From contig RBNJ01000306.1 in NCBI GenBank assembly GCA_003990765.1, positions 1-33,555 on the forward strand: a stretch of DNA of 33,555 nt. The letters run 5' to 3'. The notes beneath the pieces are model-generated. The model made no database searches. It was given only the letters and a program-made list of their open reading frames with translations, and was not told the origin of the DNA. Source of the stretch: Jimgerdemannia flammicorona (Eukaryota). The translations under genes and the position numbers were made by a program. Below, piece by piece: positions 7,387-29,415 of the stretch (positions are counted from its first letter, which is position 1; the number at the start of each line of letters is the position of its first letter).

Positions 7387-8062
7387 ATATATATATATGT
7401 AAATAATAAATTGTAATTTAAAAATAATTACATATAAACTATATAAAGAACTATAGAATTAATTAAGTAGTAAAACTAAGAAATAAAAAAATAAACAAAT
7501 TTCTTTTTTATAATAAATTAAAACAATACAAAGTCAATTCTTTTATATACTTAATATATATATAATAACTATATCAATACTATAATAAAAATTAGGAATA
7601 ATAGTTTTTTTTTTTTTTTTAGAATATTATAATTATATAATAAAATATATATATATTTTATATTTTTTTAAACTATAATATATTTTACTAAACTAAATTA
7701 ATTTAATATAATAAAATATAACTCTTTACATATAAATATATATATCTCTACAGTTAAAGAAATTCAAAATAGTATCTAAGTTAATAATATTTTCCATTAA
7801 TAAATAATTTAATATTTATATTTCTTTTATAGTTATTAAAGTAGAAAATGCTTTTATATTTTAATAATAAAAATTAAATAAAATTTTAAATATATTAAAA
7901 ATGTATATATTTTAAATAAAAAAAGAAATTATAATAATAGAAATAATTTGGATAAATAAATATTATTTATTTATCTAACTTATCCAATTCCAGATAAATA
8001 GAAAATCTTATTACTTAATGATTTATAATAAACTATCTCTTTTATATTAATAATTAGTATAT
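7387..8062. other. Extremely AT-rich low-complexity spacer between two LTRs
   Basis: Almost only A/T, with (TA)n runs and a T tract at ~7605-7620; sharp boundaries at both LTR termini. Confidence 0.85.
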
Positions 8063-9479: not shown

Positions 9480-11029
9480 AACTCTCTGAATCATGATGTG
9501 GGGAAAGATATATCTTGAGGTGATTGATGTGTACTGGTGTCCTCAGGGTTCATCTATTCATACTTCTTAAATAGGTGCTAGTTCCTCTGATGTTGTGTAC
9601 AAGATAAGGTCCTTCCTATTTAGGCCCCAGTTTGGTGGCAAAATTGGTTTCAATCATACTTCTCCAAACTAGTACTTGATCTCCAAACTTGATTTCCTGA
9701 TCCTTCTGTTTCTGATTAAAGTACTTCTTTTGTCTTTCTTGAGCTTTGATAATCTGACTTTGGGCTTAATTATGTAACTGTTCTGTCTTCTTGAGAAGGT
9801 CTCCAAAATTCTCATGCTCAGCAGTTCTGGTTTTCTTAGCAAACATCATTTTGAATGGCTTTTATTTGATGGAGGCAGCAGGAGTGTTCCAGATTTCCCA
9901 TAGGGTCTCAGATAAGCAGAGGTCCCAGTTAGTAAGATTGACTTGGGCAAGTTCTTTCTTAATGGTCTGGTTCATTCTTTCTGTTATACCATTGATCTGA
10001 GGGTAGTATGATGTGTTCTATTTGAGGTGGATCTTGTGAATTTAGGTATAACTTATAATTATGTTATTGATGAATTCTGTGCCTTGGTCAGAGATAAGTT
10101 CTTCTAGGGGTCCATATCTGAGTGTGAGTCTATGGAGAAGGCCTACAATAATTAAGACATCTGCAATTTCCATTGGGAAAGTCTTGGGCCACTTTGTCAG
10201 ATATTCTACAAATACAAGAATGTATTTATTTCTTCTTGGTATAACTGATAGGGGTCTAATTATGTCTACTCCCCATCTCTGAAAGATGTTGTCTAGTGGT
10301 GCAATTGATTACAATGGTGCTTGGTAGTTCTTCCTTCCTTAGTACTTCTGGCAGGTATTACATTTTTTGAGTATGTTCTGAACTTATGTTCTGAGGTTGG
10401 ACCAATGTTAGTATATTGTTTGCAACCTCTCTTCTATATTCACCTATCCCTGGTGAGCTTTCTGATGTTCTTTTAGATGAGATCTTCTTGTGCCTTGATG
10501 GTCTGAGGAGCTTCCTTTAGGGTGTAGTTTCTCAGAACACCCTTCTTCTGGTTCATTGGAGTTAATGGAAAAGTACATCAACATTGTTGAGAGCTTTCTC
10601 TGCTTTGGGAATGATGGTGATTTGTAATCCTGAAGAATAAGGATCCAGCAGGCTAGGATTCCAGTGAGTTCCTTACAGTTGAAAAGTTATTTGAGGGCTG
10701 TATGGTCTGTTATCAGGGCAAACTTTTTTCCAATGAGATAATGCTTGAACAGAGTGACCAACTATATTACTGCAAGGTATTCCAGTTTAGTGCTACTATA
10801 GTTTATCTATTGCTGATTGATAGCTCTGCTTGTATAAGCTATCACATGGTGTTGTTGATTGGATCCTTCTTGGGCTACTGCTCTAAGGCCATCTTTAGAA
10901 GCATCTATATTCAAGATGAATAGCTTCTGTAGATTGGGGTACACAAGGATTGGTACTGTAGTTATATGGTTCTTGAGTTCTTTGAAGGCCTTTTCTTGTA
11001 ATTTTGTCTATTTGAATGGTACTCCTTTC

Positions 11030-11031
<2 letters not shown>
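9480..11031 (-). pseudogene. Element A pol 3' part: connection/RNase H and integrase with GPY/F motif
   Basis: ILNIDASKDGLRAVAQ (RNase H); QRWGVDII, EELISDQGTEF, YPQINGITERMNQTIK (integrase DDE core); KLGPK*EGPY; no chromodomain seen. Confidence 0.9.
11016..11031. repeat. LINE target-site duplication, left copy
   Basis: ATGGTACTCCTTTCTT, identical to 16906-16921. Confidence 0.95.
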
Positions 11032-11060
<29 letters not shown>

Positions 11061-11139
11061 GTCAGTTGGACTCCATCCTTTATTAATACTCCTGTCTATC
11101 CTCTATATAAAACACAGTGCCCTACTCCTATCTGATCCC

Positions 11140-14100
11140 CCTAGGGGGTCCCCCTCCCCTCACCCCTTTCTGATGAAAGACCACTTTGTCACCCACTATT
11201 GCCACCCACCCGCCACTCTATTTACAGATCCCCTCCACCTGCCAGCAATGTTGCCCACCCTGGAGACCCCAACCAATCCACCACCTAGTCATTAGATCTT
11301 CCACCAAAGCCTCCCACCTCAACAACTTCTCCTGTATCCCTAATTGTTGCTCTTCCTCAAAAACAAAGAGCCAATGCCCAGCCAAACCAACCTACACCAC
11401 TATAACCCACCCTAATATGAGCCACTCATTGTCTACACCTCCCACCAGTCTAGATCTCAAATCCACCCAGCGACCCCTCTCATCATCCAGCTTCCTTCCT
11501 ACACCCAGCTGGTCTCCTATAGCTATCCAAAAGTCCCCCAACACCTCACATTCTCCCAGCCAATGTTCTGGCATCTGCATAACTCCTCCAGTATGCCCTA
11601 CATCATAATACTCCTCACAATCCAATTGACCACCAACCACCAGATGCCCAGCACGGAAATTCAACATAATATTCCTCCACAGCATTCTCCACCAAACTAC
11701 CTAGAACTTAGGAGGAAGCCATATCTGCACCTCAGCACTCTAGGACCAGATTCCCACCCAGTCCCACTCCTCACCAATCTCCACTGTCTGCCAGCTCTTC
11801 AGCCAAAGGTCCTGGCCAAGTCTCCACTGACACTCCACTCCATCACCAATTTCAAAATCAGCAAGCAGAGACCCCCCTAGAAGCAGTTGGTCTCATCGCC
11901 ATATAGCAGGGCCCCACACCACCTCCCCCTCATTGCTACACCAGTGCAGACCTATCTGGTGCACTCCATCCACCACTCCCCACCAGAAGCCCCTATATCT
12001 TATCTGGCAGCTTCCATTCAGACCCACCAGAGAGAGAAAATCGCCTGAGGACCCTTGAGGGGAGAATCTCTTCTCCCACACCTTCTGCATCAATGGTACC
12101 CAATCTCCTCCCTGCAGCTCCACCACCCTTCTCAACCACCAGGCATATAGACAGTGTGGCCACTTAGGGAAATCTACCAGACCTAGGCCTCCCCTAATTC
12201 CTGGCTCCACCAGAGTATCCCAACTGACCTGGGACCTTCTACCTGTCCAAATCCAATCCCTAGCCAGTTTCATCAGCCTCTTCACCACCCAGGCAGGAAA
12301 GTCTAATTGATATGCCACATACCTCAGCTTGGGGAACCAGTAAACATTCAATATTGAAACCCTCCCTATCAGAGAGATGTGACAACCACTCCAACCTTGA
12401 AGAGTCTCCCCCCATACAGCCACCCTCCTCTCTCACCATACTTGGGATAAGACAGATCTATATATAGAGAGAAAGATACCAAGATACCACACCACCTCTC
12501 CTGTGGGGACAATTGTTCCAATGACATCCCCTCCCACTAGCCCATTTCCCAACACTATTGTCTCACACTTATGTCAGTTGAGTTTTGCTCCAGAGTGTGC
12601 CTCATACCATTCCACTGTTTCTTTAAGCGCCTCTACATCCACCACTGATCCAAGTCCAACTACCATATCATCTGCAAAAGCCCCCACCTTCCACACTATA
12701 CCATATACAGAGAGCCCTGCCACCTTCCTCTGGATTCTATTGATCAAAGGTTCTAGTGAAAGTGCATAAAGAATAGGAGACAGTGGGTCACCCTGGGAGA
12801 CTCCTCTTCCCAAGTGAAATGCCAAACCCCTATGACCATTGCACATTTGCACTACCCTACTGCCTTCTAACAACTTCAACTTAGAAGCCCTAAACTGTTG
12901 TGGAACACCAATTCTATCCAGTACCTTACCTAGCCATACCTGCTGAACATGGTCATAGGTCTTCTCCTGGTCCAGAAATACCAGCCTACCATCCAGACCA
13001 CATGTCTGGACCCCTTCTATGATGCCATGCACCCAGGCAGTCTCATCTCTGATGAGTCTCCCTCCTACAACTCCTCACCCAGCACCTGTTGAGCAACCTT
13101 CTGTAGCCTTGCAACAATCACCTTAGTAACCAACTTCCTGTCCATGTCCAGAAGCATGATCAGCCTCCAGTTCTTCCATTCCTCCCTTCTACCCTTGTCT
13201 TTAAACAATAAGGCCACCAGCCCTAGGTCTTGCTCACCAACCAACTCGCTATTCAGAAGAACATGGTCACAGAGGGCAGCCATCTCTCCTAACACTTCAG
13301 GGACCTTTGCTATCTTCTTCCAGAAGTCCCAAGGCAACCCATCCTCCCCAGGTGCCATCCCAATCTTAGTTGCTGCAAGGACCCCCTGGATCTCCTCCTC
13401 TTGGACTGGTGAGATCAGATCACCCAGTCTCTCTACCTGTGGCAGCTCCTACTCTTCCAGAGCATCACCAATTGCCTCTTCCTCTACACCCCCTTCTTCC
13501 TCACTCCACAGCCCCTGCCAACTCTCCTTCAATACCCCCAAGATCTGTTGTATACCATATATCATATCCCCTCCAGTATCCAAGATGCCATCCCACTGAT
13601 GTCGCACTCTTCTAGCTTTGAGGAGCATAGACAAGTATCTAGTAGGCCACTCCCCCTCCTCTATTGCCTGCCACTGTAGCCTGACAGCCATCTCTCACAT
13701 ATGAATCTCTTCCTCCTCCCTCAACACCTGTTGCAGTTTGACAACCTTCAATTTTGCCCACTCTAACCTCCAATCATCTATCTCCACAGAGGAAAGCAAG
13801 TCTGCCCATTCCATCTACAATCTCATCAGCCTATTTGAAGCACACCATATGTGCCTTCTCCTCTGTCTCCCAGCCTCCCTACCAGCTCTACTCCAATAAA
13901 TCCTTGCAGCCTCCTTCAACTATATCCACCAGACAACCATAGACAAACCCTCATGCCTCTATATCAGAATCTTCTCCTGAACATCCTCCACCCATGAGTC
14001 CCACAACCCCTTCTGAGCCAGCAGGGAGGAGTTAAGGTGGTAATGTCCAGGTCCATCTCCACTCCCCCCAAACTGCCCCTGCCCCAACTGGCCCCAGTGA

Positions 14101-14770
14101 TTGGACCACAGGCACTACTCCACCTCCAAAGTCTTCCAAACATCAGCACCCCAGCATTTAGCCATCAGTATCCAGTCAATCCTTGTACCTAAGCCATTCA
14201 CCCAATGTATATAGACCCTGGTATTGCCCCACGATGTTCTGCCCATATCCCCTAAGGCACTAAGATTCTCCATCTCCTCCCATGCCTCCAGGCCACCACT
14301 CCTCCCACCTACATTTCTCCCTCCATCAGTTCTATCAAGATGCAGATCCTGAACCATATTAAAATCTCTACCCAGAATATCCACTCCTTTCTCCAAGAGA
14401 ATACCCTCCTCCAGCAACTCCTCAATCTATATAATCCTCTCACCCCTTACTGCTGGACAGTAACAGGAGCCAACCCTCACCGATTCTCACCCAGGCCGAA
14501 TCCAATCTTCCCAGACCAATCTGTCACCCCAGTTCCTGATTCCCCCCAGGTCTCCTCTACCCTTCTTCACCAGAATCACCACTTTGCCAAATCAAGCAGT
14601 AGCCCCACCCCATTCTCTAGTCCACTCTACTCAATTATCCTCATTCTCACACCAGACATCCTGCAGTAAGAAGAGTTCAGTCTCCAATCTCTTGAGCCAA
14701 GTAAAAATTGTTCTTACACTACCCAGAACCCCTTAACCCATTCACATTCAAAGAAAAAATATCAGTTGTA
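11140..14770 (-). pseudogene. LINE ORF2: AP endonuclease, reverse transcriptase, C-terminal Cys/His motif (disrupted)
   Basis: SLNVNGLRG, LLQD, ILGRDFN, RIDWIL (APE); APGEDGLP, NWRLIMLLDMDRKL, FLDQEKTYDHV, GVSQGDPLSPILY, AFADD (RT); CEEY..EHWLGEC. Confidence 0.92.
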
Positions 14771-14800
14771 CTGTTTATATGAAATAATGATAGATATCAC

Positions 14801-16836
14801 TCACATCCTCTACAGGTCCACATTCAACTCCTCCTGTGCCAAGTCCAGGTCTCATTCAGCTGCAAGTTCTTTCTTCTCAGCCTCCTGTGCCTCCAACCCT
14901 CCCAGTAGTTCAGCCATCACCCCATCCTCTCTCTCCTCAAAGTCCTTATGATACACCAGACAGGCCTCTCATCAGAGCTGCAAACCATGATGCTCTGCCC
15001 AACAGTAGGCAGCCCTCTCACAAGCAACAACTGCCAACTCCTCCTCTCACACCCTATCAACCTCATATCCCTCCTCCTCCATGAAAATCACCAGAATCTC
15101 CACCTTCAGTGCCTCTACCACCCCATTGCCATGCAAAATCCTTGCCCACTGCTCCTCAGGCATCACATACAGGTCCACCTCTCCCAACTTCTCAGCCACG
15201 AGGTTATCCATCACCTTACTCATCCACAGCAGGTTCCCCACTTCCTTCCCTCCTGGAGTCCCTGGCTGCCCTGCATCCAACATTGTGGTATCAGCTCCCA
15301 CACTGGCAGCCTCATCCCACTCCTCCTCAGGGACATCCACCAGCTTGTCCTTGCCAACCACCACTACCTGGCCCCCTCTCTTCACATCTGGGACCCCAAA
15401 GTGCACCTGCTTGGCCCCCTGCATCAGCACATCCTCTGTTGGCCCTCTCTTCACAACCAGGCCCCTCCTGATAAAGGGGGGGGGGGTGGAATCCATATCC
15501 TACTCCCAGACTTCAAATGTGCAATCTGCAAAGAGGTCCTTGCTCAGATCCTTCCCACCTCCTTCCTTGTTAGCCTCCACCTCCCCTTCTCTTTTACTAG
15601 TCCAGACACTGGCTTCGATACCCCCAGACACCTCAGCCCCATCGACCTTCTTCTTCGCCCCTTCTTTTATACTTGCCCATAGCTCCCTCTGCCTCCTGCA
15701 CCCCTGGGCCCACTTTCACTGCCTCTTATCAGTGTGAATATGCTTCCCATCCACAATCTCCAGATATGTTGACTCCTCAAACACTCGCCAGGCCTTCTTC
15801 CTCCTCTCAACTGCACCACTCAGCTCCTCTAGAGCGTCCAATAAGTCCTCCTCCTCCTCATCACTCCCTTTCACCCTCGACACCTTACAGATAAAGGCCC
15901 CCCACATTAGCACCAATAGCCAGTCACCCACCTTCCTGGTGGCCTCTTTTCCTGCCAGCCAAATCCTGACATCAATATCACCTATCCTGAATGTGGTCCC
16001 CTCCCACATCTGGAAGCCAATGTCCACCACCTCACCATACTCCACCATCACCTCCTCCACCCTCCTCCTAGTCTCCTTCTTCATTACTGTTGGCACCCCC
16101 TTCACCAGAAGCTACACCACTCTGGGGTCCCACCTCAAGCACTGCACCATGGGGACCACCACTTTCCCCACCACTATGCCAGCTTTCAGAGCCTCGTCTA
16201 GTAGTCCTGCCTCCTCAAAGCCCACCTCAACACCCTCCAGCCCCTTTAGGAACTTCACTGATGCTGCCCCAGCCATCTGCTTCAAAATCAGCCCCAGAAC
16301 CATCCTTGCCATCACCACCAAGCCTCAAAAGCACAGAGTGGCTGCAAACTCTGAGATCAATTTCTTGAGTAACAGGGCCACCGCAGGTCAGTTACACCAT
16401 CTGCCAGGTCCCCCTTCTCCATTGGGACCCCCTGCCACACCTGGCCATCAGCAGTCACATCTCTTTTTTTTTTCTGATCCCCCATCACAATCCCATCAAC
16501 AGTCATACCCTTAGCCACAGCCCCTCCTGCCCCTATGCTTCCATCTCCACCCTGAGGGCCACTCCCCCTCCTGATGCTAGCCTTGCCCTTCCCCTCAGCA
16601 GTGCCAGCCCTGGTTCCAGTAGACCAACCACCTGCCCTCACCTTGTCAGCAAAGCTGGTAGAGCCAGGCCTTCCTCCAGCTCCACCTAATATCAGTCCTC
16701 CTCCAGAGCCTCTGCCACCCTTTGATCCTCCAAAATCCCCCATCCCCAAACCATACCCTCTCCCCACATGCTGCCAGCTGAAAGCCCCAGGTCCACCCAA
16801 CCCAGTATACCCATTAGAACTCTTGCTTGATGACAT
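14801..16836 (-). pseudogene. LINE ORF1 (Gly-rich N-terminus, RRM-like core, acidic C-terminus), disrupted
   Basis: ATG at 16836; ORF fragments 16112-16321, 15716-16105 and 15047-15496 share one frame; KGVP..VMVEYGEVVDI resembles L1/Tx1 ORF1 RRM regions. Confidence 0.75.
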
Positions 16837-16905
16837 GTTTATAATACCTTTCCTCTGAGTTGTATTGAAAAACTGCTGCTTGAAGTTTGTGTAACATGAT
16901 TTGTG

Positions 16906-16921
16906 ATGGTACTCCTTTCTT
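16906..16921. repeat. LINE target-site duplication, right copy
   Basis: ATGGTACTCCTTTCTT, identical to 11016-11031. Confidence 0.95.
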
Positions 16922-17341
16922 GAGAAGGATTCAGATTGGGGTGGCAATTTGAGCAAAATCCTTAATAAACCTTCTGTAGTAGGATACCAGCATCAGTAAT
17001 GATAATATTTCCTTTGTGGTATTGAGTAGTGGCCAATTGTTGATCTTTTCAGTTCTCTTTGGGTCTGCATGGATTTCTACTTTTGAAACTATGAATCCAA
17101 GGAATTCAAGTTTCTGTTTTCCAAAGTAGCATTTCTTTATATTCAGTCTCAAGTGGTTTTTGTAGGTGAGCTTGAAGAATTCCTCTAGGTAGTATAGGTA
17201 TTCTTTAAAATTTACTGAATAGATGTTGGAATTATCCATATATACAATCAGGCAGTGGTGGATCAAGGGGGCATAGACTGAATTCATCATTCTCTGAAAG
17301 GTGGGGGTGTATTGCAAAGTCCAAAGGACATTCAGAGGTAT
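16922..17341 (-). pseudogene. Element A RT core fragment stranded between the LINE and element C
   Basis: SFGLCN, PTFQRMMN, VYMDN (YxDD decayed), KKCYF, LEFLGFIVS, SYYRRFIKDFAQIA. Confidence 0.92.
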
Positions 17342-17821
17342 TGTAAGAGGGTTGCTTTTTTGAGTAACCATTACATAGTTCTGGGAGAGTTTTCTGAAAG
17401 TTCTGGATATTCTGGAAGACTGTTTTCTTATGGTCAAGATCAATTTCATATGGAGTACATCCTCTATACTTATTGATTTCAAGTTTGGGTTGACATCTCA
17501 ACCAAAGACCTTTTTCGAACTAGTTCTGGATGTTCAGGATTTTCCATATTTCAGGAAGTTCAAGAAACTAAGATCAGCTTAGTTGCATTGGCATATCACT
17601 GCAGACAATACCCAATTAGGAAATTTCGTGATAGGGTTAGGAGTGAGACCTAACAGAGAGCAGATTTACTTAAGAGTAGTTTGTGGGTTATCAAATAGGT
17701 TTATTCGCTATTCATGATATTGCTATACTAGGAGTAGTTGTGTGAAGGGATATTGTGGGGAAGTGCTCAGGAGTTGTGTTCAGATTGTTCAAGTCTGAGA
17801 TTCTGAGGTCTGGAGGAGAGG

Positions 17822-17957
17822 GTATTTATACTAGTGAAAGGCTATCTGGACTATACTAGATATAGATATAGCACTTAAGTACTTTGCTGAGTCAGAATGC
17901 AGTCACATAGTACAAGTGTGATCTGATATATCAAGAGATCAACTGACTGCTGAGTCA
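17822..17957 (-). promoter_or_regulatory. Putative LTR promoter of element C: two AP-1/Gcn4-type sites and a TATA box
   Basis: TGAGTCA at 17888-17894 and 17951-17957; minus-strand TATAAATA at ~17823-17830; AATAAA at ~17700-17705; all present in the other LTR. Confidence 0.55.
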
Positions 17958-18019
17958 GTTCACAGTCACATCATACAAGACTAATCTAACTATACTATGA
18001 CTGCTAAGCTATTTATGAT

Positions 18020-19106
18020 TTAGGCACTGTCTGGGTAGTCTTCAATGATATCACCATCGATGACATTATCTCTGATGAAGTGGTTATCCAGGAAAAGTGG
18101 TTCATGGATTACTTCTCCTTATTGACTGAGGTAGTAATATATTGGGACTTCATCACCATCCCACAGGATGGCATCATCTGTCTCATATGCTGGATAAGGT
18201 GTTGGTGGGTGAAGGAGCAGTGCATCATCTTCGCTTTCATCAGTTTTGCTATCTGCATACCTTCTATAGGTTACAGCACTATGAGTCACAGGATTGTAGT
18301 AAGCTGGTGCCTGTGGTTCATGTCACTCATACTCAGTTGGTGGAGTGGTTGGTTCAATCTCAAGAGTTGTCTGGAGGTATAGGTTGTGTTCTCCAGTCTC
18401 TTCATTATAGTTGAAGTAATCAGAGGTGAATGTGGATTGGTATTTATGCCAGTGGTCATTGTCCCAATAAGTCTCATATACTGTTATGAATTGTTGTAAG
18501 TTCATCAGCAAGGTTGGTGGTGTGATCAGGGTTGGCAGAGATCCTTGGCTTGAGGTCATGTTGGTGTCAGAGGGATTGTTGTCTTCTGCTTCATCTTCAT
18601 CAAAGTGGATTATATCATAGATATCCTTTATGATGTATCTGACTTGGGACATTTGCAGGATATGATCATTGGGGTGGGGGAAGGTTCTGTCTGTGGTTTT
18701 GACATACTCGAGGTACTTGTGGTTGAGTTCTTGTATCATATTGTCGATTTGGCCATAGGACAGGGTAGCAACCATTTCGGCTATAGTAACTCGGAGGCAG
18801 GGAATAACAGTGCTATATTCATAGAAGAGTTCTCAATGTTTGCGGGCAATGAGTTTCTGGTGTTGAGACATCTGGGTAATGTTTGTATCATGGTGGTGTT
18901 CGACCATGTCTTCCAGGAGATGTCCAATCTGGTAGTAGCTTGAGATTTGTCCAATCTGGTGGGCCTTGTTCAGCATGTTGAGAGCATTCCATTGGGCTTC
19001 CATAAAGTAGAGGGGTGCTAGGCTATGGATATTCATGAGGGGCAGAGGGGGTGTGGCTCAGTTGACAATGGCATTCCAAATGTCAGTGCAGATATGGTGT
19101 GATCAT
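18020..19106 (-). pseudogene. LTR-embedded ORF of unknown function, 3' LTR copy
   Basis: ORFs 18833-19036 and 18323-18775 are in the same frame and continue to TAA at 18020-18022; the 5' end is frameshifted by the 11-bp deletion. Confidence 0.7.
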
Positions 19107-19326
19107 GTTTGTATGTTTGGAAGTTGTGGTTGTTGTTTGTTTTGGTTCTCTGTTTCGATGTGTCTCAGTACTCGGTATATATGTATTTGTTCCTGATTGG
19201 TAAGATTCTGTTCATGTGAATCTTGTGTTCTGTGACTTCATGTTAACTCAGCATTGTGTACTGTGACTTTGGTTTGACTCAGCTTCATGATCAAGCAGGT
19301 GATTTCCAGATTTGTTTGGAGGTCAC

Positions 19327-19409
19327 GTGTGATTTTAGTGGCTTGTTCAGAGGGTGATGTGTGATTTCAGTGGCTTGTTCATAAGGTGATGTGTGATTTC
19401 GGTGGCTTG
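19327..19409. repeat. 32-bp tandem repeat (~2.6 copies) at the U3 end of LTR C; also at ~27920-28002
   Basis: Unit GTGTGATTT(T/C)AGTGGCTTGTTCAGAGGGTGAT, head to tail with no spacers. Confidence 0.85.
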
Positions 19410-19426
19410 GAGGTTGTGCACTTACA

Positions 19427-19443
19427 ACTCTCCCCTTCTTAGC
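19427..19443 (-). promoter_or_regulatory. Polypurine tract of element C
   Basis: Minus strand GCTAAGAAGGGGAGAGT directly before TGTAAG of the 3' LTR. Confidence 0.9.
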
Positions 19444-19848
19444 TTTTGATGTCCTTGTCGGGACCTTCCAATTTTGTTCTAGTGTTGTTACACTGTTTGA
19501 GAGGTCAATAGTCCAGTGAAGTCCATTTATCTCAAAAAGTGGCATGCTCATAGTACAGTTGCCTAACACATTGGATTCATATATTAAAGGGTCATGTGTT
19601 CAATGCTGTATGCCAGAAGTGATTCTGATGTCATTCACTGCTGGAGAATTTCCTCTAAGGAATCTTCTTAAATGTCTATACCTCATTTCCCATCAGTGAT
19701 ACAGGGAGAATAGGCTGGCTTTCAGTTTTGCTATTTTTTCCAGAGAGTCAGTATTCTTGTCTTGTTTTGCTGAGTTCTTGATTTTTGATAATTATAGTGT
19801 TTGGGAGGATAATATATAGTATGTATGGATAGGTGCAGAGTATTTGGT

Positions 19849-20015
19849 TTAGTTGTTCAAGGAATCATATTTCTGAACTAAGTCAGTAGCATTCTGGAGG
19901 TTGGTCTTAGGTTTCCAGTTTGCATCATGGATTGGATAATCTTTCCATTTAACAAGGTACTCAGGGTGGTTCTTGTGGCCATGTTTGTTGAGGATTTGTT
20001 CAACTTCATACTCTT
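19849..20015 (-). pseudogene. Chromodomain at the integrase C-terminus of element C
   Basis: EYEVEQILNKH..EYLVKWKDYPIHDANWKPKTNL retains the aromatic Y/W/Y residues. Confidence 0.92.
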
Positions 20016-23000
20016 CTTGGTCATTAATAATGACAGGTGCAGGTGGTTTCATGTTTCAGTTAGGGAATAGTTCATCATCATTCTCATCATATCACTTGAG
20101 ACATTGGATATTGAAGACTGGATAAACTTAATAGTGTCTGGTAGTGACAATTTGTAGGAGGTTAGAGAGACTTATGCATGACTTCAAATGGTCCAATGAA
20201 CTTGCTGTTCAGCTTTGTAGATGGACTGTGCTTGAGGTTATCAACTCGGTATTCTCTGATATCCAGTAGACCTTTTTCTCCAATATCAAAGGTTTCTTCT
20301 CAGCAGTGTTGGTTAACATACTGTGACTGTTGTTCTTGAGCTCATGATAAATTCTCGATGGCAATCTGGCTTAGATTGCGCATTCAGAGTAAGAATTCTT
20401 CAATAGCTTTGACTGTGGAGGGTTCTTCAGTGGTTCAGATAAGTGTCAAAGGAGTGTTTGGGTTTTGTTCAGTGTTGGCGAAGAATGGGGTCATTCCCAG
20501 GGAGGCTTGCTTGCTGTTGTTATAAGCAAACTCAACTGTGGTCAGGTGTTCATGCCAATCATCTTGTCTGTAGAAAACATAGTTTCTTAGCATTTATTCT
20601 AGAGTTTGGTTCATTCTTTCAGTTTGGCCATCAGTTTCTGGATGAAAGGCTATGGATAGTGCAAGTTTTGTTCCAAGGTGTGCATGGAGGGCTTTCCAAA
20701 AATGGCTGGTAAATTTTGGGTCTCAGTCACTAACAATGATCTTAGGAAGACTATGATAGTGGAAGATATTGTCAAATAAGAGTGTGGCTATGTCTGGTGC
20801 TGTTGCAGTAGTGGTAGTAGGCACAAAGTAGACTTGTTTGCTGAGGTAATCTACAAAGACAACAATTGCATCTTTTCTATTCTTGGTTCAGAGTAGTTAT
20901 ACAATGAAGTCCATAGAGATTTGTTCCCAATTTGCAGATGATACTGGGATAGAGTGAAGTAAGCTGGGTTTTGCTAGTGTTGAGGACTTGTTTTGTTGGC
21001 AGGTATCACAGGAAGTGATATAGGTTTTGAGCTGATCTGCCATGCAGGACCAATAGAAGTTTTGGGAGATAACTTCATAGCATTTGTTGAATCCTAAATA
21101 TCCAGCTATAGGTGCATTATGACATTCAAATAGGATAGTCCTTTGGAGTTCTCAGTTGTTTAGGACATACAGTCTGTCCTTATAGTAGATAGTATTGTCC
21201 TTCAGTTGGTATTAGTGATACTGTGTATGCTTGTTGGCATCATCACTGTTCAGGATTTCTCAAAGTACTTGAGCTTCCTTTTCATCAGCACATACTGTGA
21301 TAATTTATTCTATGATGGAGTTTGTAACCAAGGTGAGAGTTTGGATAACTTCTTCGATTGGTGGTCTGGAGATTACATCAGCAACAATATTTTCCTTGCC
21401 AGGGCAGTACTGGATTTTGTAGTCAAAGTTGGTGAGGACTTTCATCCATCTGGCTTGCTTTCGAGAAAGGGTAGCCTGTGTCTTGATATTAACTAATGAT
21501 TTGTGGTCAGTCAATATAGTGAAGTGTACTCCTTCTAAGTATGGTCACCATTTGATCAGGGTGTCTACAATAGCTAACATTTCCTTTTCATAGGTTACAT
21601 AGTTGATTTCGGCATCATTGAACTTGCGGGAGTGATAGGCCACAGGGTGTCCTTCTTGCATGAGTACTGCTCGAAGGGCTAGGTCAGAGGCATTAGTAGT
21701 GACTTCATATGGTAGGGCAGGGTTTGCTGCTCAAAGTACTGGAGTGGTTATCAAGGCATCCTTCAGTGCTTAAAAGGCAGTATCTTGCTCGGGTCCCCAA
21801 TTTACAAGATTGTTGAAGTCTTTCTCTTGTTTCATGGTCCAGAGTTATTCTTGTTTCTTGCTGTGCTTGGTCATTTGGGTGAGGGTGGTAGCAATTTTAG
21901 CAAAGTTGGCAACAAATTGCTTGTAATAGTTTGCTAATCCCAGGAATGACTGGAGATCTTTCAGCTTCTTGAGTCTGGGCCAATCTTTGATTGCAGAGAT
22001 TTTGCTGAGGTCCACTTTAATTCTATTTGGAGTGACAATGTGTCCAAGAAATTGAATTTCTTTCAGGAGAAATTCACACTTGCTGAGTTTTGCAAAGAGT
22101 CAGTTTTCTCAGAGTTTCAGTAGTACTAGTTCAAGGTGTTCAAGATGTTCTGCCAGCATTTTGCTGAAGACTAGGATGTCGTCAATGTAGACAACAACGA
22201 ATTTGTCCAGATATGGGTGCAGGATAATATTCATCAGGGTCTGGAAGGTTGCATGAGCATTAGTTAAGCCAAAGGGCATAAACAGGAACTCAAAGTGTTC
22301 ATAGTGAGTTTGGAAGGCTGTCTTGTAGATGTCTTCTTCTTTCATGGCAATTTGCCAGTAATCATTTCGCAGGTCAAAGGAGCTCATGAATTGCAGGTTG
22401 GTAAGTCTATCGAATATTTCATCATTCCTCAGTAGTAGGCAACAGTTCTTGATAGTCTGTTCATTGAGATCACAGTAGTCAATGCACATTTGCAGGTTTC
22501 CTCCTTTCTTGACAACAAATAGGACTGGTATACCATAAGATGATATGCTGGGTCTGATGAATCCTTGTTCTAGGAGTTCATCAATTTCTTTCTTGAGTAC
22601 ATTGATTTCTCTTGGAGACATGTGGTAGATTGACTTGAAGGCTGGTTTTGCATCTGGGATAGTCTTGATGGTATGGTCTACTACTCATTTAAGAGGTAGG
22701 CCTTTTGGGAGCTTCTTTGGGATATGTCTCGAAATTTCTGGAGTAGTGGTCTGACACAACTGTCAACTTTGAAAAAATCTTCTCCAGAGTTCTTGGGTTC
22801 TCCTTTGGATGGGTGGATGGAGATGGCAAAGAGAGGGCATTTCTTGGTCAATTTCTTGAGTTGTAGCTTGTTAATGTGGGTGATCTTTGGTCCAGGGTCA
22901 CTAGAATTAAGTAGGTCCTTTTCACCTTGCAGTTTGAAGTTGTGGCATCCTTTCTTAATGGTCAGAGAATGGTTTACCCAATCAATCATGGGGTTCTCTT

Positions 23001-23504
23001 GTTTCAACCATAGGGTTCTAAGGATGATTTTGTTATCAGGGAGTGGTATGATCTGGAGGGTAATATGTACTCAGTAGTTACCAATTCAGAAGGGTAGATT
23101 GTGGACTTCTTTGCTAATGATATGTGAGGTTCCATCAGCTGTGGCAACTGCTTGAGTTTGTTGTACTGGAGAGGTAAAAACCTTGAGTCTGTTGGCTATT
23201 TCCTCATTGATAAAGTTGCCTAAGGCACCACTGTCTATCATAATCTTGACAGATGCTCGGTTAATGAAAGCTTTAAGTGTAAGCAGTTTGTCTGATCCAA
23301 TGGTGGTGATTTCAGTTGTAGGGGCTTTCCTTCTGTTGGTTCTTCTTTGTCCCAGTTCATTGACACAAGAGAAGCAATCATCAATCATTCGGGAAGAGTA
23401 CATTCCAATGCCATGAGGGCATCAGCCACTTGGTATATATCTGTCTTTGATCTTCTTGTAGAATTGTTCTTTTTTGCTCATAGTAGGTTGGGCTGGGGCC
23501 TTGT

Positions 23505-23910
23505 TCGATGAGCCAAATCCTTTGGATCCTTGGATGGTAGGTAGTAGTTCAGGGACCTCTTTGACTGTCAGGGTTGATTCCATTTTTTCAAATAGAATCT
23601 GGGCAATGCAGAAACCAATAGGGATCTTGAAGGGTGTCCAACTGTGGTTTCAGATGAGGACAATAATTTCGCCTATATAATCTTCATCAATGACTCCTCC
23701 TCCTACTGAGAGTCCTTTCAATGCTAGGCTGCTGCATATTCTTCCAACATGTCCTTCAGGAATTTGGATACTGATTCCTGTGTAGACTTCCTTGACTTCT
23801 TGGTTGGAAACTGTAGCTTCTTCAGCTGCATACAGGTCATATCCAGCTGCTTTTTGACTTCTTTTGGTTGGGACCTTGGCAGTTTGCCTTAACTTGACAA
23901 AGTCTAGTGT
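23505..23910 (-). pseudogene. dut: dUTPase domain of element C (between nucleocapsid and protease)
   Basis: AAGYDLYA, TGISIQIPEGHVGRI, SSLALKG, GGVIDEDYIGEI, IAQILF, GSKGFGSS. Confidence 0.92.
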
Positions 23911-25905
23911 TCTGGTGATTAGGTTGTTGAGGTGGTGCAGAGTAGTAACAGTTGCTCATGTTGTTGTTCGGGGTTTTCAGTTAGGGCAGGTGCTGGCCAT
24001 GTGTCCTGTCTTTCAGCAATAGAAGCATGCTCCACTTCTTCAAAGTTCATTCCTTTCGCCTTCAGTGAGTTTCTTGAAGGTACTTGGTTGGGTGGGTTCA
24101 TGATTTCTGGGTGTCCAAGAGGTGGATGTGGAGGGAGTATGGGATGCTTCATGCTTGGGTTTGTCTTTCTTGGTCCAAGTCTTTTCCTTGTTGTTGAATT
24201 GCCTTTGGGGCAGAATCGGTCCAGCTGATAGGATTTGCTTGACCATAGTCTTGATTCTTACCAGGCACTATTGTTAGTGATCACAACCAACCAGGCAGCC
24301 TTGTACTCAAATTTTTCTAGTAAGCCATTCAGGCAGTGCATCAGATAAATGGTCTGCTCTTGTACCATTTTGTGCTTCATCATTGACATTGTATCCTAGG
24401 CCAACAGTGTTCAGGAGTGACTCAAGTTTTGTACAGAAGGTTTTGAATTCTTCTTTGCCATATACATCAAATTTAAGGTTGTGGAGTTTTACTCGAGATT
24501 CAGCAATCATGGTTTTACTGCAGTATTGAGCAATCATGAGTTGTTTGAGTCCAGGGGCTGCAGGATGAGCTCCATATCCTGGGGCATTGTTTGCTGTATT
24601 CTGAGCAACTACTGTAGGTCGGGTATCCCATGTGAGGGGTTTTTCAGAAAGGGTTTACCTCCATTCTTCAGCAGGTCCTTGGAAGAATGTAACAACTTGG
24701 TGGACATAGGCTGTAGTGGTAGCAAAGAGTTGTTCCAGAGTGTAGTCTTGATTGTATGTCAGAACACAGTCAGCAACTTGCTCATTGGTCCATTGATTGG
24801 CTTTGAAGTTAGTATCAACTACACTAATAAAGCTTTGGACTTCTTGTATAGTACCATTCAAGGTAGGTAGGCTCAGATTTTTGGTAGATCAGGTCTGTTC
24901 AGCTAAGGCAGTAATGGTTGCTGCCATTATTGCTACCTGGGCTGTGAGGTTTAGAATCTGTTGGTTCACTATGTTGTTTGCTAGAAGTGGTTGGACTGCT
25001 GGTAGTGGTGTTACTGGTACTACTTGAGGTACTGGTGCAGAGTGTGATGGGGTTCTTTGGATCTGTATAAGTTGCTGGAGTAGTAGTTGTGGGTCTGGAG
25101 TGAGGGCTTGATAGATAACTGTTTGTTGCTGTATAGGTATATTCTGTCCTGATGGAGGTACTTCTCCTTCAGTGGTATATCCAGGATCAAATTCACTGAG
25201 ATACTCCTCCTCCTCTTCGGTTTGGTCCCTGTGTAATCAGTGTCAAAGTAGATGGAATAGTTGTATATCTGATTTCAGATGGACTTAATTCAAAGTCAAG
25301 TTCAGGTTTATTGTTGGTTTCAGGTTCAGGTAGAGCTGTAGCAGGGCCTGCTTCAGGTTCGAGGTCAGGTAGTTGATGAAGGGTTTCTCTTGCTTCTTCT
25401 TTAAGAATATGGTGGGCCTTGCTGTTCTGGAATTGGTAGTATAATGTAGTCTTGGTCCTGGTATAGTGAAAGTCAGTAGAGTTGAGCCACTTGGCTACAG
25501 AGGCTTGGGCTTCATGAGGGACTAAGGCTAGAAAGATTACTGCTGGCTGTCTTAGGTCACTTGTATTTGTGGAGCTGACAAAACTCTTGTTGAGGAGAGT
25601 AAAGAAGGCTTCAATAAGACCTTCTTCATCTTGACTTACTGGGTGTAGTGCAAGGAGTTCAGTGAATAGGGTTTTGTCTATTTGCTGATTTAACTGGAGT
25701 ATTTCTTTCTTCAAATGAAGTTTGTTCCACTTGATGTAGGTGTGGAGGTCAATTTGTCCTTATATGTCAGGTTCAATTCTCTCCAGATTGTCAGATAGTT
25801 CAGGATAAATTCCAGTTCAGAGGTTGGGCTTTATACCAACTTGTAGGAATTCTCAGAAGAGTTTGTAGTGGGGTGAGGAAGCATCTTGAAGCAGATTTGT
25901 ATTGT

Positions 25906-25920
25906 AAACTGCTGCTACCA
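25906..25920 (-). promoter_or_regulatory. Primer-binding site of element C, initiator tRNA-Met type
   Basis: Minus strand TGGTAGCAGCAGTTT begins 3 nt after the 5' LTR; TGGTAGC matches the 3' end of eukaryotic tRNAi-Met. Confidence 0.8.
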
Positions 25921-26601
25921 AGTTGTAAGAGGGTTGCTTTTTTGGGTATCCATTATATAGTTCTAGGAGCATTTTCTGAAAGTTCTGGATATCCTGAAAG
26001 ACCGTTTTCTTATGGTCAAGATCAATTTCATATGGAGTATGTCCTCTATGCTTATTGATTTCAAGTTTGGGTTGATGTCTCAACCAAAGTCCTTTTTCAG
26101 ACCAGTTCTGAATGTTCAGGATTTTCCATATTTCAGGAAGTTCAAGAAACAAAGACCAGCTTAGTTGAATTGGCGTATCATGGCAGACAATACCCAATTA
26201 GGAAATTTCGTGATGGGATTAGGAGTGGGACCTAACAGGGAGCAGATTTACTTAAGAGTGGTTTGTAGGTTATTAAATAGATTTATTCGCTATTCATGAT
26301 ATTGCTATACTAGGAGTAGTTGTAAAAAGGGATATTGTGGGGAAGTGCTCAGGAGTTGTGTTCAGATTGTTCAAGTCTGATATTCTGAGGTCTGGGGGAG
26401 GGTGTATTTATACTAGTGAGGGGCTATCTGGACTATACTAGATATGGGTGTAGTACTTAAGAACTTTGCTGAGTCAGAATGCAGTTACATAGTACAAGTG
26501 TGATCTGATATATCAAGAGATCGACTGACTGCTGAGTCAGTTCACAGTCATATCGTACAAGACTAATCTAACTATACTATGACTGCTAAGCTATTTATGA
26601 T

Positions 26602-27699
26602 TTAGGCACTATCTGGGTAGTCTTCGATGACATCACCATCGATAACATCATCTCTGATGAAGTGATCATCCAGGAAGAGTGGTTTGTAGATTACTTCTCC
26701 TTGTTGGCTGAGGTAGTAATATATTGGGACTTCATCACCATCCTACAGGATGGCATCATCTGTCTCATATGCTGGATAAGGTGTTGGTGGGCAAAGGAGC
26801 AGTGCATCATCTTCACTTTCATTGGTTTCGCTATCTGCATACCTTTTATAGGTTACAGCACTATGAGTCATGGGGTTGTAGTAAGCTGGAGGCTGTGGTT
26901 CATGTCACTTGTACTCAGGTGGTGGAGTGGTTTGTTCAATCTCAAGGGTTGTCTGGAGGTATAGGTTATGTTCCCCAGTCTCTTCATTGTAGTTGAAGTA
27001 ATCAGAAGTGAATGTGAGTTGGTATTCATACCAGTGGTCATTGTCCCAATAAGTCTCGTATGCTGTTATGAATTGTTGTAAGTTCATCGGCAAGGTTGGT
27101 AGTGTGATCAGGGTTGGCAGAGATCCTTGGCTTGAGGTCATGTTGGCATCAGAGGGATCATTGTCTTCTGCTTCGTCTTCATTGAAGTGGATTATATCTT
27201 AGACATCCTTCATGGCATATCCGACTTGGGGCATTTGCAGGATATAATCATTGGGGTGGGAGAAGGTTCTGTCTGTGGTTTCAATGTACTCAAGGTACTT
27301 GTGGTTGAGTTCTTGTATCATGTCATTGATTTGGCCATAGGACAGGATATCAACCATTTCGGCTATAGTAACTCAGAGGTGGGGAATAACAGTGCTATAT
27401 TCATAGAAGAGTTCTCAGTATTTGCTGGCAATGAGTTTCTGGTGTTGAGACATCTGGGTAATGTCTGTATTGTGGTAGTGTTCAACCATGTCTTCCAGGA
27501 GGCGGCCAATCTGGTAGTAGCTTGAGATTTGTCCAATCCAGTGGGCCTCGTTCAGCATGTTCAGAGCATTCCATCAGGCTTCCATAAAGTAGAGGGGTGC
27601 TAGGCTATGGATATTCATGAGGGGCAGAGGGGGTGTAACTTGGTTGACAATGGCATTCCAAATGTCAGTGCGGATACAGTTATAGATCTTGGTAGTCAT
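26602..27699 (-). pseudogene. LTR-embedded ORF of unknown function, 5' LTR copy (365 codons plus stop)
   Basis: ATG 27699 to TAA 26602 is 1098 nt in one frame: MTTKIYNCIRTDIWNAIVNQVTPPLPLMNIHSLAPLYF...GDVIEDYPDSA*; internal stops are mostly TGA or TAG. Confidence 0.72.
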
Positions 27700-27874
27700 G
27701 TTTGTATGTTTGGAAGTTGGGGTTGTTGTTTGTTGTGGTTCTCTGTTTCAATGCATCTCAGTGCTTGGTATATATGCATTTGGTCCTGATTGGTAAGATT
27801 CTGTTTATGGGAATCTTGTGTTCTATGACTTCATATTGACTCAGCTTTGTGTGCTGTGACTTTGGTTTGACTCA
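27700..27874 (-). promoter_or_regulatory. Putative promoter of the LTR-embedded ORF
   Basis: TGACTCA at 27837-27843 and 27868-27874, minus-strand CCAAT ~27789-27793, TATATA 27769-27774, A/C-rich leader ending ACAAAC-ATG. Confidence 0.55.
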
Positions 27875-28944
27875 GCTTTATGATCAAGCAGGTGATTTCC
27901 AGATTTGTTTGGAGGTTGTGTGTGATTTCAGTGGCTTGTTCAGAGGGTGATGTGTGATTTTGGTTGCTTGTTCAGAGGGTGATATGTGATTTTGGTGGCT
28001 TGGAGGTTGTGAGCTTACAGGTATTCAAACAGTTTTTCTAGAGCAAAGAAGGCTGGCTTTTGATGTCCTTGGAGTCTATGGGGATCTCATGGAATCCTGC
28101 AAAAAGGTTTATATTGCTAAAGTACATATCTGGCATCTTGTAACTAATCCAAAAGGTCATTGATTCTGGGCAAAGAATAGGCATCCTTTTTAGTGACTGA
28201 ATTGAGTTTCCTGTAATCTATATAGAGTCTCCATCCTCCTTTCTTTGGCACAATAAGTATAGGGCTGGCCCAAGGGCTGGTAGATGGTCGAATAACTCCA
28301 TTGTCTAAGAGTTCTTGAATGTGCTCCTTTTTGAATATTCTTAAGTAATGGGATATTCTATAGGATTTCTGTCAGATGGGTGTTACTTTTCCTGAATTTA
28401 TACTGTGGTGATATGATGGGTTATATGGCAGGTTGCTATAATCAGTAGTGAAGATATCTTGAATTTGTTGAGGTTTCCCTGGTTGTTGCCATTGTTGAGG
28501 TGTCAATTCATCTCCAATGTTGGTGGAAGGCTTCACTGTCTCTTCAATCACAGAGGGGCCTTTCCTTTCTTCTGGGACCTTTTGCTGTTTCCCAATAAGT
28601 TTAGTTCATAAACTTCCCAATGAGTTCAGTTGAGAAAAGGCATCTGGTGCCCTATGATGGTTCCTTTTGGTAAGATGATGGTTACCCAACTTTAGTTGGT
28701 TGCTTAGGAGTGCACTGGATTCATCTTGTTAGGGAATGTGTGTCTTTCTATATCCGAGTGTGAGATATCTTCATTGGGTTCAAAGAAAAGATTCCTGGGG
28801 TCGGGAGGTGCAATGATTTCGAAGATAGTTTGTTCTCCAGGCTCCAGAATGAGATTCTTGTGCAGTTTGACTGGTTGGCAGTACACTTGCTGGGAAACAT
28901 TTCTCTTGAGGTGGTTGACTTGAAGGAGATGTACTTCCTTCTTG

Positions 28945-29075
28945 TCTGATCTACCAAATCCTTTGGCTTGTCTTGTTCCTTCAGTTAGTTTAGAGACTTC
29001 TTGTAATTGTGGCATCTTGACCTTCATGAAGACTGCTTGGATGATCTTCTGTCCTCTAATGATTTGGTACCTATA

Positions 29076-29118
<43 letters not shown>

Positions 29119-29415
29119 ATTTGGTACCATTCTGTACTACTATTGTATAGAATGATCTTGATTTCACCTGTATATCCTGGATCAATGGTTCCTCCTTCTA
29201 CAGTTATTCCTTATCTGGCAAGTCCACACCTTGAGGTCAATTGGATGTAAGCTCCTTGGGGTAGTTGCATGGCTAGTCCAGTTCTAATCATGAATGTTTT
29301 TCCAGGCTTAATAGATTCATCCTCCAGACTGTGAAGATCATATCCTATATCTTCTGAGTGTGCTTTGGTCAGGGGATTGGCCTTGGGATGTAATAGGGCA
29401 TACTAGGCAACATCC
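28945..29415 (-). pseudogene. dut: dUTPase domain of element A (between protease and RT), interrupted by a poly(A) insertion
   Basis: DIGYDLHS, RTGLAMQLPQG, TSRCGLA, GGTIDPGYTGEI, IIQAVF, TRQAKGFGRS. Confidence 0.92.
29072..29114 (+). mobile_element. Tail-only retro-insertion: TATATAT plus poly(A), flanked by a 14-bp TSD
   Basis: AATGATTTGGTACC at 29058-29071 and 29115-29128; removing the insert restores the dUTPase frame. Confidence 0.9.

Follow-up and report, generated by a model that had tools for sequence, protein, structure and literature searches.

A nine-base word shared at the second-strand cut of two poly(A)-tailed insertions in Jimgerdemannia flammicorona: coincidence or cleavage preference

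The choice and the making of the second-strand cut are among the least understood steps of LINE retrotransposition. L1 elements show a loose TTTT/AA preference (slashes mark cuts throughout) and leave target duplications of variable length, and to our knowledge no conserved word occurs at their top-strand cut. Some APE-type LINEs have narrower targets, such as Tx1L of Xenopus, which inserts inside another transposon, Tx1D. PMC4640811 assigns most target-specific APE LINEs to the Tx1 and R1 clades and describes many Tx1-clade families (Keno etc.) that insert at one defined sequence. For R1, the 28S rDNA-specific APE-type element of arthropods, PMC2718515 describes a constant top-strand cut, 14 bases downstream of the nick in the bottom strand; duplications measure 14 bp whether the copy is full-length or truncated, microhomology or extra bases are confined to the duplication's end, and off-target insertions resemble the 28S site. 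Dispersed APE LINEs can also be selective: in L1Tc/NARTc and ingi/RIME of trypanosomes a conserved pattern precedes the insertions at a constant spacing, duplications are of fixed length, and the pattern is attributed to the endonuclease of the element (PMC5814959, citing Bringaud 2006).

Here we analyse 33,555 nucleotides of the Jimgerdemannia flammicorona genome (contig RBNJ01000306.1 of assembly GCA_003990765.1, positions 1 to 33,555), a stretch referred to as the window. It holds two retro-insertions, each flanked by an exact target duplication and each restoring a gypsy reading frame when excised; the larger is a LINE with identifiable domains, and the smaller consists of little besides a poly(A) tail. 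The original prediction held that the two targets carry an identical 9-mer at equal distance from the nick, and the sequence confirms it. In element orientation both empty sites read pyrimidine run/AA-N7-GTACC/ATTC, with the pyrimidines before the nick, AA after it and the word GTACCATTC across the second cut, just as had been described. The features concerned are the following.

1-31, plus strand: third poly(A) insertion, only its tail in view, cut by the window edge, inside a gypsy-LTR-like repeat (R)
183-191, minus strand: GGACCATTC, an 8/9 match to the word, in repeat R directly after CCTTATT
11014-11022, minus strand: GTACCATTC, site 1, across the presumed top-strand cut GTACC/ATTC
11018-11031, minus strand: LINE target duplication, 3'-side copy, AAGAAAGGAGTACC in element orientation (to 11016 with a shared AT)
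11032-16907, minus strand: decayed L1-like LINE, 5.9 kb, with exact target duplication and poly(A)
11032-11057, minus strand: LINE tail, pure poly(A) (plus-strand T28 at 11030-11057)
11058-16907, minus strand: LINE body, apparently near full-length, with a 5' UTR of ~75 nt, ORF1, and ORF2 with APE and RT
16908-16921, minus strand: LINE target duplication, 5'-side copy (to 16906 with the shared AT)
24851-24859, plus strand: third exact copy of GTACCATTC, unoccupied, antisense to N-G-T of a gag-like ORF
29058-29071, plus strand: duplication of the tail-only insert, 5'-side copy, AATGATTTGGTACC
29072-29116, plus strand: tail-only retro-insertion of 45 bases, TATATAT+A38, with exact 14-bp duplication
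29115-29128, plus strand: duplication of the tail-only insert, 3'-side copy, its first two A shared with the tail
29124-29132, plus strand: GTACCATTC, site 2, in a different gypsy copy, where it runs antisense to E-W-Y of the dUTPase domain

The LINE is flanked by an exact 14-bp duplication, GGTACTCCTTTCTT at 11018-11031 repeated at 16908-16921, which grows to 16 bases (AAGAAAGGAGTACCAT) with the shared AT included; the last two T of the T28 run may belong to it as well. Its empty site is CCTTCTC/AAGAAAGGAGTACC/ATTCAAA in element orientation, and once the element is excised the gypsy pol reading is continuous again (...FAQIATPI*ILLKKGVPFK*TKLQEKAFKEL...). In-frame stops, 24 in number and each a TGA or TAG codon, and three frame changes interrupt the decayed body, whose sense strand contains 37% G. 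Positions 12577-13074 of the minus strand match RVT_1 (E = 4.9e-12), as expected of a non-LTR-type RT. The APE fragment of the window, itself decayed, gave no Pfam match on its own, and the domain was identified through an intact relative, L001, residues 18-221 of whose ORF2 match Exo_endo_phos (E = 1.3e-14); L001 ORF2 also matches RVT_1 (E = 9.3e-27). The two LINEs are 67% identical in DNA and 56-71% identical in ORF2 amino acids. A tblastn search with L001 ORF1 and ORF2 covers window positions 16785-12496, window ORF2 aligns to L001 ORF2 residues 6-581 at 56-63%, and a further protein, P0004, covers 12744-11794 at 77%. No Pfam domain was matched by ORF1 (~670 aa, Gly-rich at its start). Among solved structures human L1 ORF2p matches best (E = 6e-35), the nearest named proteins are plant L1-like ones with zf-RVT and RNase H, and the Protein Atlas returned generic APE/RT clusters that carry no clade information. 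With RT, APE, poly(A) and a staggered-cut duplication all present, the element is an APE-type, L1-like non-LTR retrotransposon.

Further copies were sought by several routes. A metagenome scan with a two-row alignment of the C-terminal part of ORF2 (P0004 and the window) gave 585 pattern matches and no relative, and a scan with an RT alignment gave two loci, L001 and L002, the latter consisting of the RT only, without a junction. Neither alignment found a relative in viral contigs, nor did the scan of prokaryote genome contigs. A protein search with the ORF spanning the 5' junction of the LINE, which other copies might share by read-through from their flanks, produced 1698 candidates, none of which scored. 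Finally, no look-alike by DNA (two stretches) or by P0004 protein was found among the annotations of 348 windows of the genome, so the family is not obviously abundant. Strand-biased editing between the window LINE and L001 was also considered; G>A changes numbered 134 against 123 A>G, and C>T 83 against 53 T>C, counts that are not decisive at 67% identity.

The tail-only insert has the empty site GTCCTCT/AATGATTTGGTACC/ATTCTG, and its excision restores the pol frame of a gypsy copy (...GEIKIILYNSSTEWYQIIRGQKI..., dUTPase). The TATA before its tail matches the 3' end of the LINE, CTATA(A)n, over four bases. As had been cautioned, nick placement beside A runs is uncertain, and each duplication could measure anything from 12 to 14 bases. 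The apparent cut spacing is 14 bases at both sites (n = 2), 12-14 given the ambiguity of the tails, and 10-16 at site 1 if TACCAT belongs to the LINE. Beyond these two, no poly(A)-plus-duplication event was found in the window, one 10-mer being at chance level. The inverted arms, word-N7-T28 ... A38-N7-word, agree at 87.5% over 48 bases; an 18-kb element with terminal inverted repeats was considered and rejected, because both arms come with direct duplications of their own and the frames return on excision.

The account that we favour, with confidence just short of even, is that coincidence and ordinary microhomology explain the shared word. Both inserts would then have arisen by ordinary target-primed reverse transcription (TPRT), carried out, in a fungal genome rich in gypsy elements, by LINE machinery of the L1 type that primes on poly(A). 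The bottom strand would have been nicked at ...YTT/RAG (apparently CTTTCTT/GAGAAGG for the LINE and AATCATT/AGAGGAC for the tail-only insert), the T-ended primer would pair with the poly(A) tail, and the top strand would be cut, or joined, about 14 bases downstream. For the LINE, nearly the whole RNA would have been copied and its 5' end probably joined by 2-6 bases of microhomology, of which AT is certain and TACCAT follows if the 5' end of L001 is the guide; at the other site reverse transcription would have halted after a few bases, leaving TATATAT+A38. On this account GTACCATTC at +10 to +18 would be a chance match between two unrelated gypsy coding sequences. The scarcity of events (two with duplications in the window) and of family members agrees with coincidence. 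What sits less easily with it is that both duplications measure 14 bases with the same 12-14 ambiguity, that the two events, with their pure tails and exact duplications, appear young and that their common TATA(A)n end fits one machinery; furthermore, six bases of microhomology would be unusually long for a full-length 5' junction.

How improbable the match is depends on what is counted. GTACCATTC occurs exactly three times in the window against 0.24 expected, a number reached in none of 100 shuffles. When 300,000 pairs of oriented sites were drawn at random from the restored host (the window with the inserts removed), the probability that a pair shares nine or more consecutive identical bases at equal offset between -20 and +40 was P = 3.5e-4, rising to 2.8e-3 once a shift of up to three is allowed. 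Such a value is small for a single pair, which weighs against coincidence, but per-pair chances of this order yield matches once very many windows have been read. The contexts of the three copies are unrelated: at site 1 the word encodes, in sense, V-P-F of the gypsy pol motif LLKKGVPFKW, and the others are antisense to E-W-Y and to N-G-T. Site 1 lies after a gypsy RT region and site 2 inside a gypsy dUTPase region, and the flank homology expected of a repeated-gene target was not found between them. The two targets had been placed in opposite orientation in unrelated parts of a single element A; orientation and unrelatedness stand, whereas the supposed single element is in fact several different gypsy copies. 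The seven bases between the nick AA and the word agree at one position, a further point for coincidence. One-mismatch forms are not enriched either (10 occur where 7.19 are expected, and 17 of 100 shuffles give at least 10), and no old tails precede the seven one-mismatch variants inspected.

Two of the three exact copies are occupied at an identical offset, and this speaks for a word that is read. The empty one at 24851-24859, already pointed out in the original prediction, can be counted either way, as it lacks a pyrimidine run/AA 14 bases upstream. A host feature such as a bound protein or DNA shape, making GTACCATTC spots fragile or accessible, so that both strands break there and any LINE can use the breaks, would account for the coincidence itself and nothing more; given the unoccupied copy, the lack of enriched near-variants, and the surroundings of the word, where neither structure nor repeat was detected, we regard it as very improbable.

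Of the poly(A) junctions in the window, three altogether, two carry the word. The third, at 1-31, is not followed by the motif, as had been noted before, and neither is its probable empty site, reconstructed from two R copies as GAAGA/TTACC(A)CCCAAGAAG, where the nick is atypical. This favours coincidence, although another family may be its source. The relative L001 bears on the same question, as it sits in the gypsy LTR family to which repeat R belongs. Its 5' junction is ambiguous among three plausible alignments of its flank to R. Two of them give CCTTCTT/GGGTCAAC or CCTTCTT/GGGTAA, without motif, and agree with coincidence. The third, the gap-poor alignment chosen by MAFFT, maps the junction to the GGACCATTC spot at 183-191, at CCTT(A/C)TT followed by GGGACCATTC in R, which would make a third motif-like site and counts against coincidence.

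That the LINE machinery fixes the top-strand cut by the word GTACC/ATTC, about 14 bases from the nick and before or regardless of much RNA copying, is a bolder proposal that we hold tentatively, as somewhat doubtful. A cut set by the word would explain the duplication length and flank that the full-length element has in common with the aborted, tail-only product. The word could be read by ORF2p or, more boldly, by the 5' end of the LINE RNA (TACCAUCAC...) pairing as a guide, and the home target of the family may be the gypsy LTR site GGGACC/ATTC, where L001 sits.

In the protein form of this proposal, which is the idea of the original prediction and which we judge unlikely, the APE or another DNA-binding part of ORF2 reads GTACC/ATTC and sets the cut about 14 bases from the Y-run/AA nick, so that all products, even an aborted tail, carry an equal duplication length and flank. 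Possibly the family is specific for a repeated target, the gypsy LTR site ...CCTTATTGGGACC/ATTCTC that holds L001, and the two window sites are look-alike off-targets, as with R1 outside the 28S gene. The same word, offset and duplication length in non-homologous contexts (P = 3.5e-4) argue for a protein reader. If the L001 LINE starts with ACTCAC (ATCAC in the window), its flank ends in ...CTACC, and the R copy most similar to that flank continues with ATTCTC after GGGACC. The R copy at L001 would, however, need CCACT where all three R copies of the window have GGG or GAG, and other R modules yield no motif. Precedents for selective targeting exist in R1 (PMC2718515), the Tx1/R1 clades (PMC4640811) and L1Tc/NARTc (PMC5814959), but the literature searched gave no APE LINE that reads a second-cut word while ignoring the bases between. 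Moreover, there are two cases only, the tail-only insert is tied to the family by four bases (TATA), and two insertions 18 kb apart are on their face unlikely for a low-copy family.

Pairing of nucleic acids could also place the junction. L001 has TACCACTCAC at the place homologous to TACC/ATCAC in the window, and part of the 'duplication' can therefore be LINE sequence. On this comparison the TACCA that closes the window duplication may belong to the LINE's own 5' end, hence microhomology, and the last four to six bases of the 5'-side copy (TACC, or TACCAT with AT) may derive from the LINE instead of the target. Such microhomology belongs equally to the coincidence account. Taken further, the 5' end of the LINE RNA (~TACCAUCACAAAU) resembles the target (TACCATTCAAAT, site 1) and would guide the junction: this, and perhaps the top-strand cut, would form where the 3' end of the cDNA or the RNA's 5' end pairs with the target, and pairing sites 10-16 bases from the nick would yield finished insertions. 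The site-1 target past the junction (TACCAT-T-CAAAT) does resemble the LINE 5' end (TACCAT-CA-CAAAT), and in the module-0 alignment the L001 LINE start ACCACTCAC lies opposite ACCATTCTC in R (7/9). The tail-only insert, however, has no LINE 5' sequence, and TATATAT, the end of its cDNA, is unable to pair with GTACCATTC; pairing therefore covers site 1 and leaves the coincidence unexplained, unless the target is already paired with the RNA 5' end when reverse transcription begins, for which we know of no precedent in APE LINEs. Annealing of the cDNA end to the cut top strand is, according to PMC2718515, the accepted model of R1/R2 5' junctions. The family 5' end is deduced from a single relative only 67% identical. 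We consider guidance by pairing quite improbable.

The shared 9-mer is thus real and unlikely for one pair, and we cannot tell a protein preference from coincidence, because only two cases and one ambiguous relative are at hand. Were a dispersed LINE family to read a word at its second cut, the cut site would be fixed early and by sequence, aborted tail-only products would bear the identical mark, and a simple substrate for biochemistry would follow. Should coincidence hold, the locus is a tidy, ordinary L1-type insertion pair in a gypsy graveyard, and the lesson is that a 9-mer common to two cases is not enough.

Among known systems, the nearest likeness is to L1 of humans and other mammals together with its products in trans (Alu, processed pseudogenes and severely 5'-truncated copies), which likewise combine an ORF2 with APE and RT, poly(A) and a T-ended primer, and which share with this locus duplications of about 14 bases, full-length as well as near tail-only products, and microhomology at 5' junctions. 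Unlike L1, the two events described here share nine bases at the top-strand cut, and the window LINE differs further in an ORF1 without Pfam match and a G-rich sense strand. R1 targets one repeated gene, whose flanks are homologous throughout, whereas here the flanks are unrelated beyond the word and the pyrimidine run. In contrast to targets of the Tx1L type, the two in the window do not represent a single repeat; the likeness lies in the APE type. For L1Tc/ingi the positions that are conserved, as established from many copies, fall upstream of the first nick, whereas the word described here is at the second cut and in two copies.

The two retro-insertions that share a 9-base word lie in eukaryotic repeat DNA of about 40% GC. 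Several decayed Ty3/gypsy copies, in minus-strand orientation, make up the window and carry RT, integrase and dUTPase domains; two of the RTs differ from each other, dUTPase is present twice, and two copies (17341-19426 and 25923-28019) are 91% alike. A block at 11-17 kb with 50% GC and strong strand skew corresponds to a minus-strand LINE. The segment at 7001-8000 is very AT-rich (18% GC), contains a T16 run at 7605-7620 and adjoins an LTR-like repeat. The insertions and their surroundings comprise:

16907, minus: 5' end of the LINE, laid out in its own orientation as 5' UTR (~75 nt), ORF1, ORF2 (APE and RT), 3' UTR and tail
11018-11031 and 16908-16921: target duplication of the LINE, GGTACTCCTTTCTT
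29072-29116: tail-only insert, TATATAT followed by A38
29058-29071 and 29115-29128: duplication of the tail-only insert, AATGATTTGGTACC
23653-23955 and 28707-29210, minus: dUTPase domains of two different gypsy copies (Pfam E = 1.3e-18 and 1.1e-7)

The LINE copy is dead, and its reading frames contain three frame changes and 24 in-frame stops, which are TGA or TAG in every case and never TAA. Relatives were found neither in a first metagenome scan nor in viral or prokaryote collections; a second metagenome scan yielded two, the contig L001 and a second locus, L002. L001 (4546 nt) is 66-68% identical to the window LINE at the DNA level, with an intact ORF1 of 671 aa, homologous to that of the window, and an ORF2 intact over its first 776 aa and open to the contig end. 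Because this LINE is intact, its family may still be active in its organism. Among the window stops, 9 of 20 stand opposite Trp, 4 opposite Arg and 1 opposite Gln in the L001 ORFs, and 3 of 3 opposite Trp in P0004, a 317-aa JGI protein of 77-82% identity; such a pattern fits decay by C>T/G>A transitions. The 3' UTR ends in ...GACTATA, followed by a pure tail of 26-28 A, and the flanking repeat reaches 16 bases when the common AT is counted. The A28 tail and the target duplications are still exact despite the decay of the LINE. Its start (16886-16907, minus) resembles a short tandem duplication (ATCACAAATCATG / TTACACAAACTTC), present as a single unit in L001.

Few close proteins exist for this LINE in a large protein database; two further relatives, P0001 and P0014, are 50% identical to the window RT piece and 60% identical to L001 ORF2, respectively. 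Remoter relatives combine APE, RVT_1 and zf-RVT, and those with names are plant L1-like. The window RT piece matches RVT_1, L001 ORF2 carries Exo_endo_phos and RVT_1 domains, and the best match of the latter among solved structures is human L1 ORF2p (E = 6e-35), with R2 far behind (~1e-13). On account of these matches, the window LINE is an L1-superclade APE LINE.

Excision of each insert together with one duplication copy restores the gypsy pol reading, as ...YYRRFIKDFAQIATPI*ILLKKGVPFK*TKLQEKAFKELK... at the LINE target (site 1) and as ...GGTIDPGYTGEIKIILYNSSTEWYQIIRGQKIIQAVF..., in a dUTPase domain, at the target of the tail-only insert (site 2); the insertion boundaries are therefore right. 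In element orientation the empty sites read CCTTCTC/AAGAAAGGAGTACC/ATTCAAA and GTCCTCT/AATGATTTGGTACC/ATTCTGT, and the duplication ends at both between GTACC and ATTC. The original prediction of pyrimidines before the nick, AA after it and the same 9-mer at the same offset (11014-11022, minus; 29124-29132, plus) is borne out, with 1 of 7 positions identical between AA and word. It had also put the sites in unrelated parts of one host element; the contexts are indeed unrelated, whereas several gypsy copies take the place of the single element. The word encodes VPF in sense at site 1, and is antisense to EWY at site 2 and to NGT in an unoccupied copy at 24851-24859, so the three occurrences, in different coding contexts, are not homologous. 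That two sites have a common word is thus confirmed as an observation. A mechanical search of the window for A-runs with an upstream-repeated word returned both known events and one 10-mer at chance level. The two events also form a 44-48-base inverted repeat around 18 kb (11014-11057 against 29085-29132; word-N7-T28 ... A38-N7-word; 87.5% identity), at which recombination could take place; no trace of an inversion was seen.

The word occurs three times in the window against 0.24 expected, a count reached in 0 of 100 shuffles. Variants with one mismatch show no enrichment: 10 are present where 7.19 are expected, and 17 of 100 shuffles give at least that number. A decayed tail precedes 0 of 7 near-variants. 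When 300,000 pairs of oriented positions were drawn at random from the host with both inserts removed, at least 9 identical bases in a row within -20..+40 had P = 3.5e-4 at the same offset and 2.8e-3 when the offsets could differ by as much as 3; for the single pair alone, a word shared by chance is unlikely. The pair was picked from a scan over very many windows, and the weight of the match therefore hangs on the frequency of word-specific dispersed LINEs, which, if truly specific, seem to be rare. A chance match, combined with ordinary microhomology at site 1, requires the 3.5e-4 event and draws on the low prior for dispersed 9-base specificity and on the unproven origin of both events in one low-copy family; we give it just under an even chance.

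Both insertions are most likely TPRT events. The bottom strand would be nicked after ...CTT or ...ATT, poly(A) primed at the nick, the top strand broken ~14 bases downstream and the duplication produced by fill-in, the tail-only insert being a putative early abort; just four bases are common to its TATA(A)n end and the CTATA(A)n of the LINE. A protein that recognises the word where the second strand is cut, possibly at off-targets of a site-specific family, would best account for the equal duplication length and flank of the aborted product. This reading has a precedent in the fixed +14 cut of R1, as described in PMC2718515, and is on balance rather unlikely. A host or DNA-structure effect is highly improbable.

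The 5' junction of the LINE can be compared with that of L001 through a repeat, R, which, from its position, is probably a gypsy LTR:

8066-8507, 33113-33554 and 34-367 (the last inverted): copies of R
8112-8215, 33159-33262 and 316-223 (minus): counterparts in R of L001:1-103
34-328 (minus), 8206-8400 and 33253-33450: parts of R that hold its three degenerate internal modules, TCTG(G)GTGT..GGC.A...CCTT(A/C)TT-GGG
1-31: poly(A) tail at the window edge, abutting the inverted R copy

The first 103 bases of L001 are homologous to R (up to 96% identity over 47 bases), which points to the same or a sister organism as the source of L001 and places its LINE, too, in a gypsy LTR. Beyond AGCTGGA it matches R poorly and reads ACTTCTGCGTGCGGCAACACCTTCTT-CCACTACCACTCAC-GTTACACAAATC..., and the window junction reads AAGAAAGGAGTACC-ATCACAAATCAT-GTTACACAAAC.... 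Since L001 has TACCA(C)TCAC where the window has TACC/ATCAC, the final 4-6 bases of the upstream duplication may belong to the 5' end of the LINE; the 5' junction would then have formed at a microhomology of up to 6 bases, as PMC2718515 describes for R1/R2 junctions. A reading in which the 5' end of the LINE itself pairs with the target and so guides join or cut would account for site 1 and perhaps L001. [quoted passage not shown]

R holds three modules ending CCTT(A/C)TT-GGG. MAFFT and plain collinearity place the CCTTCTT of L001 on the first, which is followed by GGGACCATTC (word 8 of 9, 183-191, minus) in one copy and by G(A/G)GACAGTTC in the other two. Local alignment with cheap gaps fits it to the second or third (P against shuffles 0.003, 0.05 and 0.27 per R copy), where GGGTCAAC or GGGTAA follows and the word is absent. 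Depending on the alignment chosen, L001, a contig without the 3' junction, either adds a third site resembling the motif or counts as a counter-example.

For the tail at 1-31, the empty site as read from the two R copies that have no interruption is ...TTTTGAAGA/TTACC(A)CCCAAGAAG...; it contains no GTACCATTC, in keeping with the earlier claim of a motif-less flank. The nick deduced on the primer strand, …GGGTAA/TCTTC, offers no T for pairing with poly(A) and is atypical for L1-type priming. Because this primer end would not pair, the tail is the product either of another family or of an atypical event. It speaks mildly against a general word rule and, as a motif-less third event in the window, favours coincidence. 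A real word preference of any kind is somewhat less likely than not, and the shared word is a lead rather than a result. The third or first R module has been touched by two retro-insertions, the poly(A) at 1-31 and, in a related copy, the L001 LINE.

L1 shows the same mechanics as the window events and has a loose TTTT/AA preference and 5' junctions with microhomology of the Zingler type. R2 employs a 5'-RNA-bound subunit. Keyword searches of the literature found no report of an APE LINE for which the second cut is the sole place where a word is read, which does not show absence. APE LINEs with a specific target fall mostly into the Tx1 and R1 clades (PMC4640811), and R2 second-strand cleavage is the subject of PMC6895275 and PMC13486585. 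The likeness to R1 lies in the idea of a fixed cut, and that to L1Tc/NARTc in a conserved pattern at dispersed sites, as described in PMC5814959, citing Bringaud 2006.
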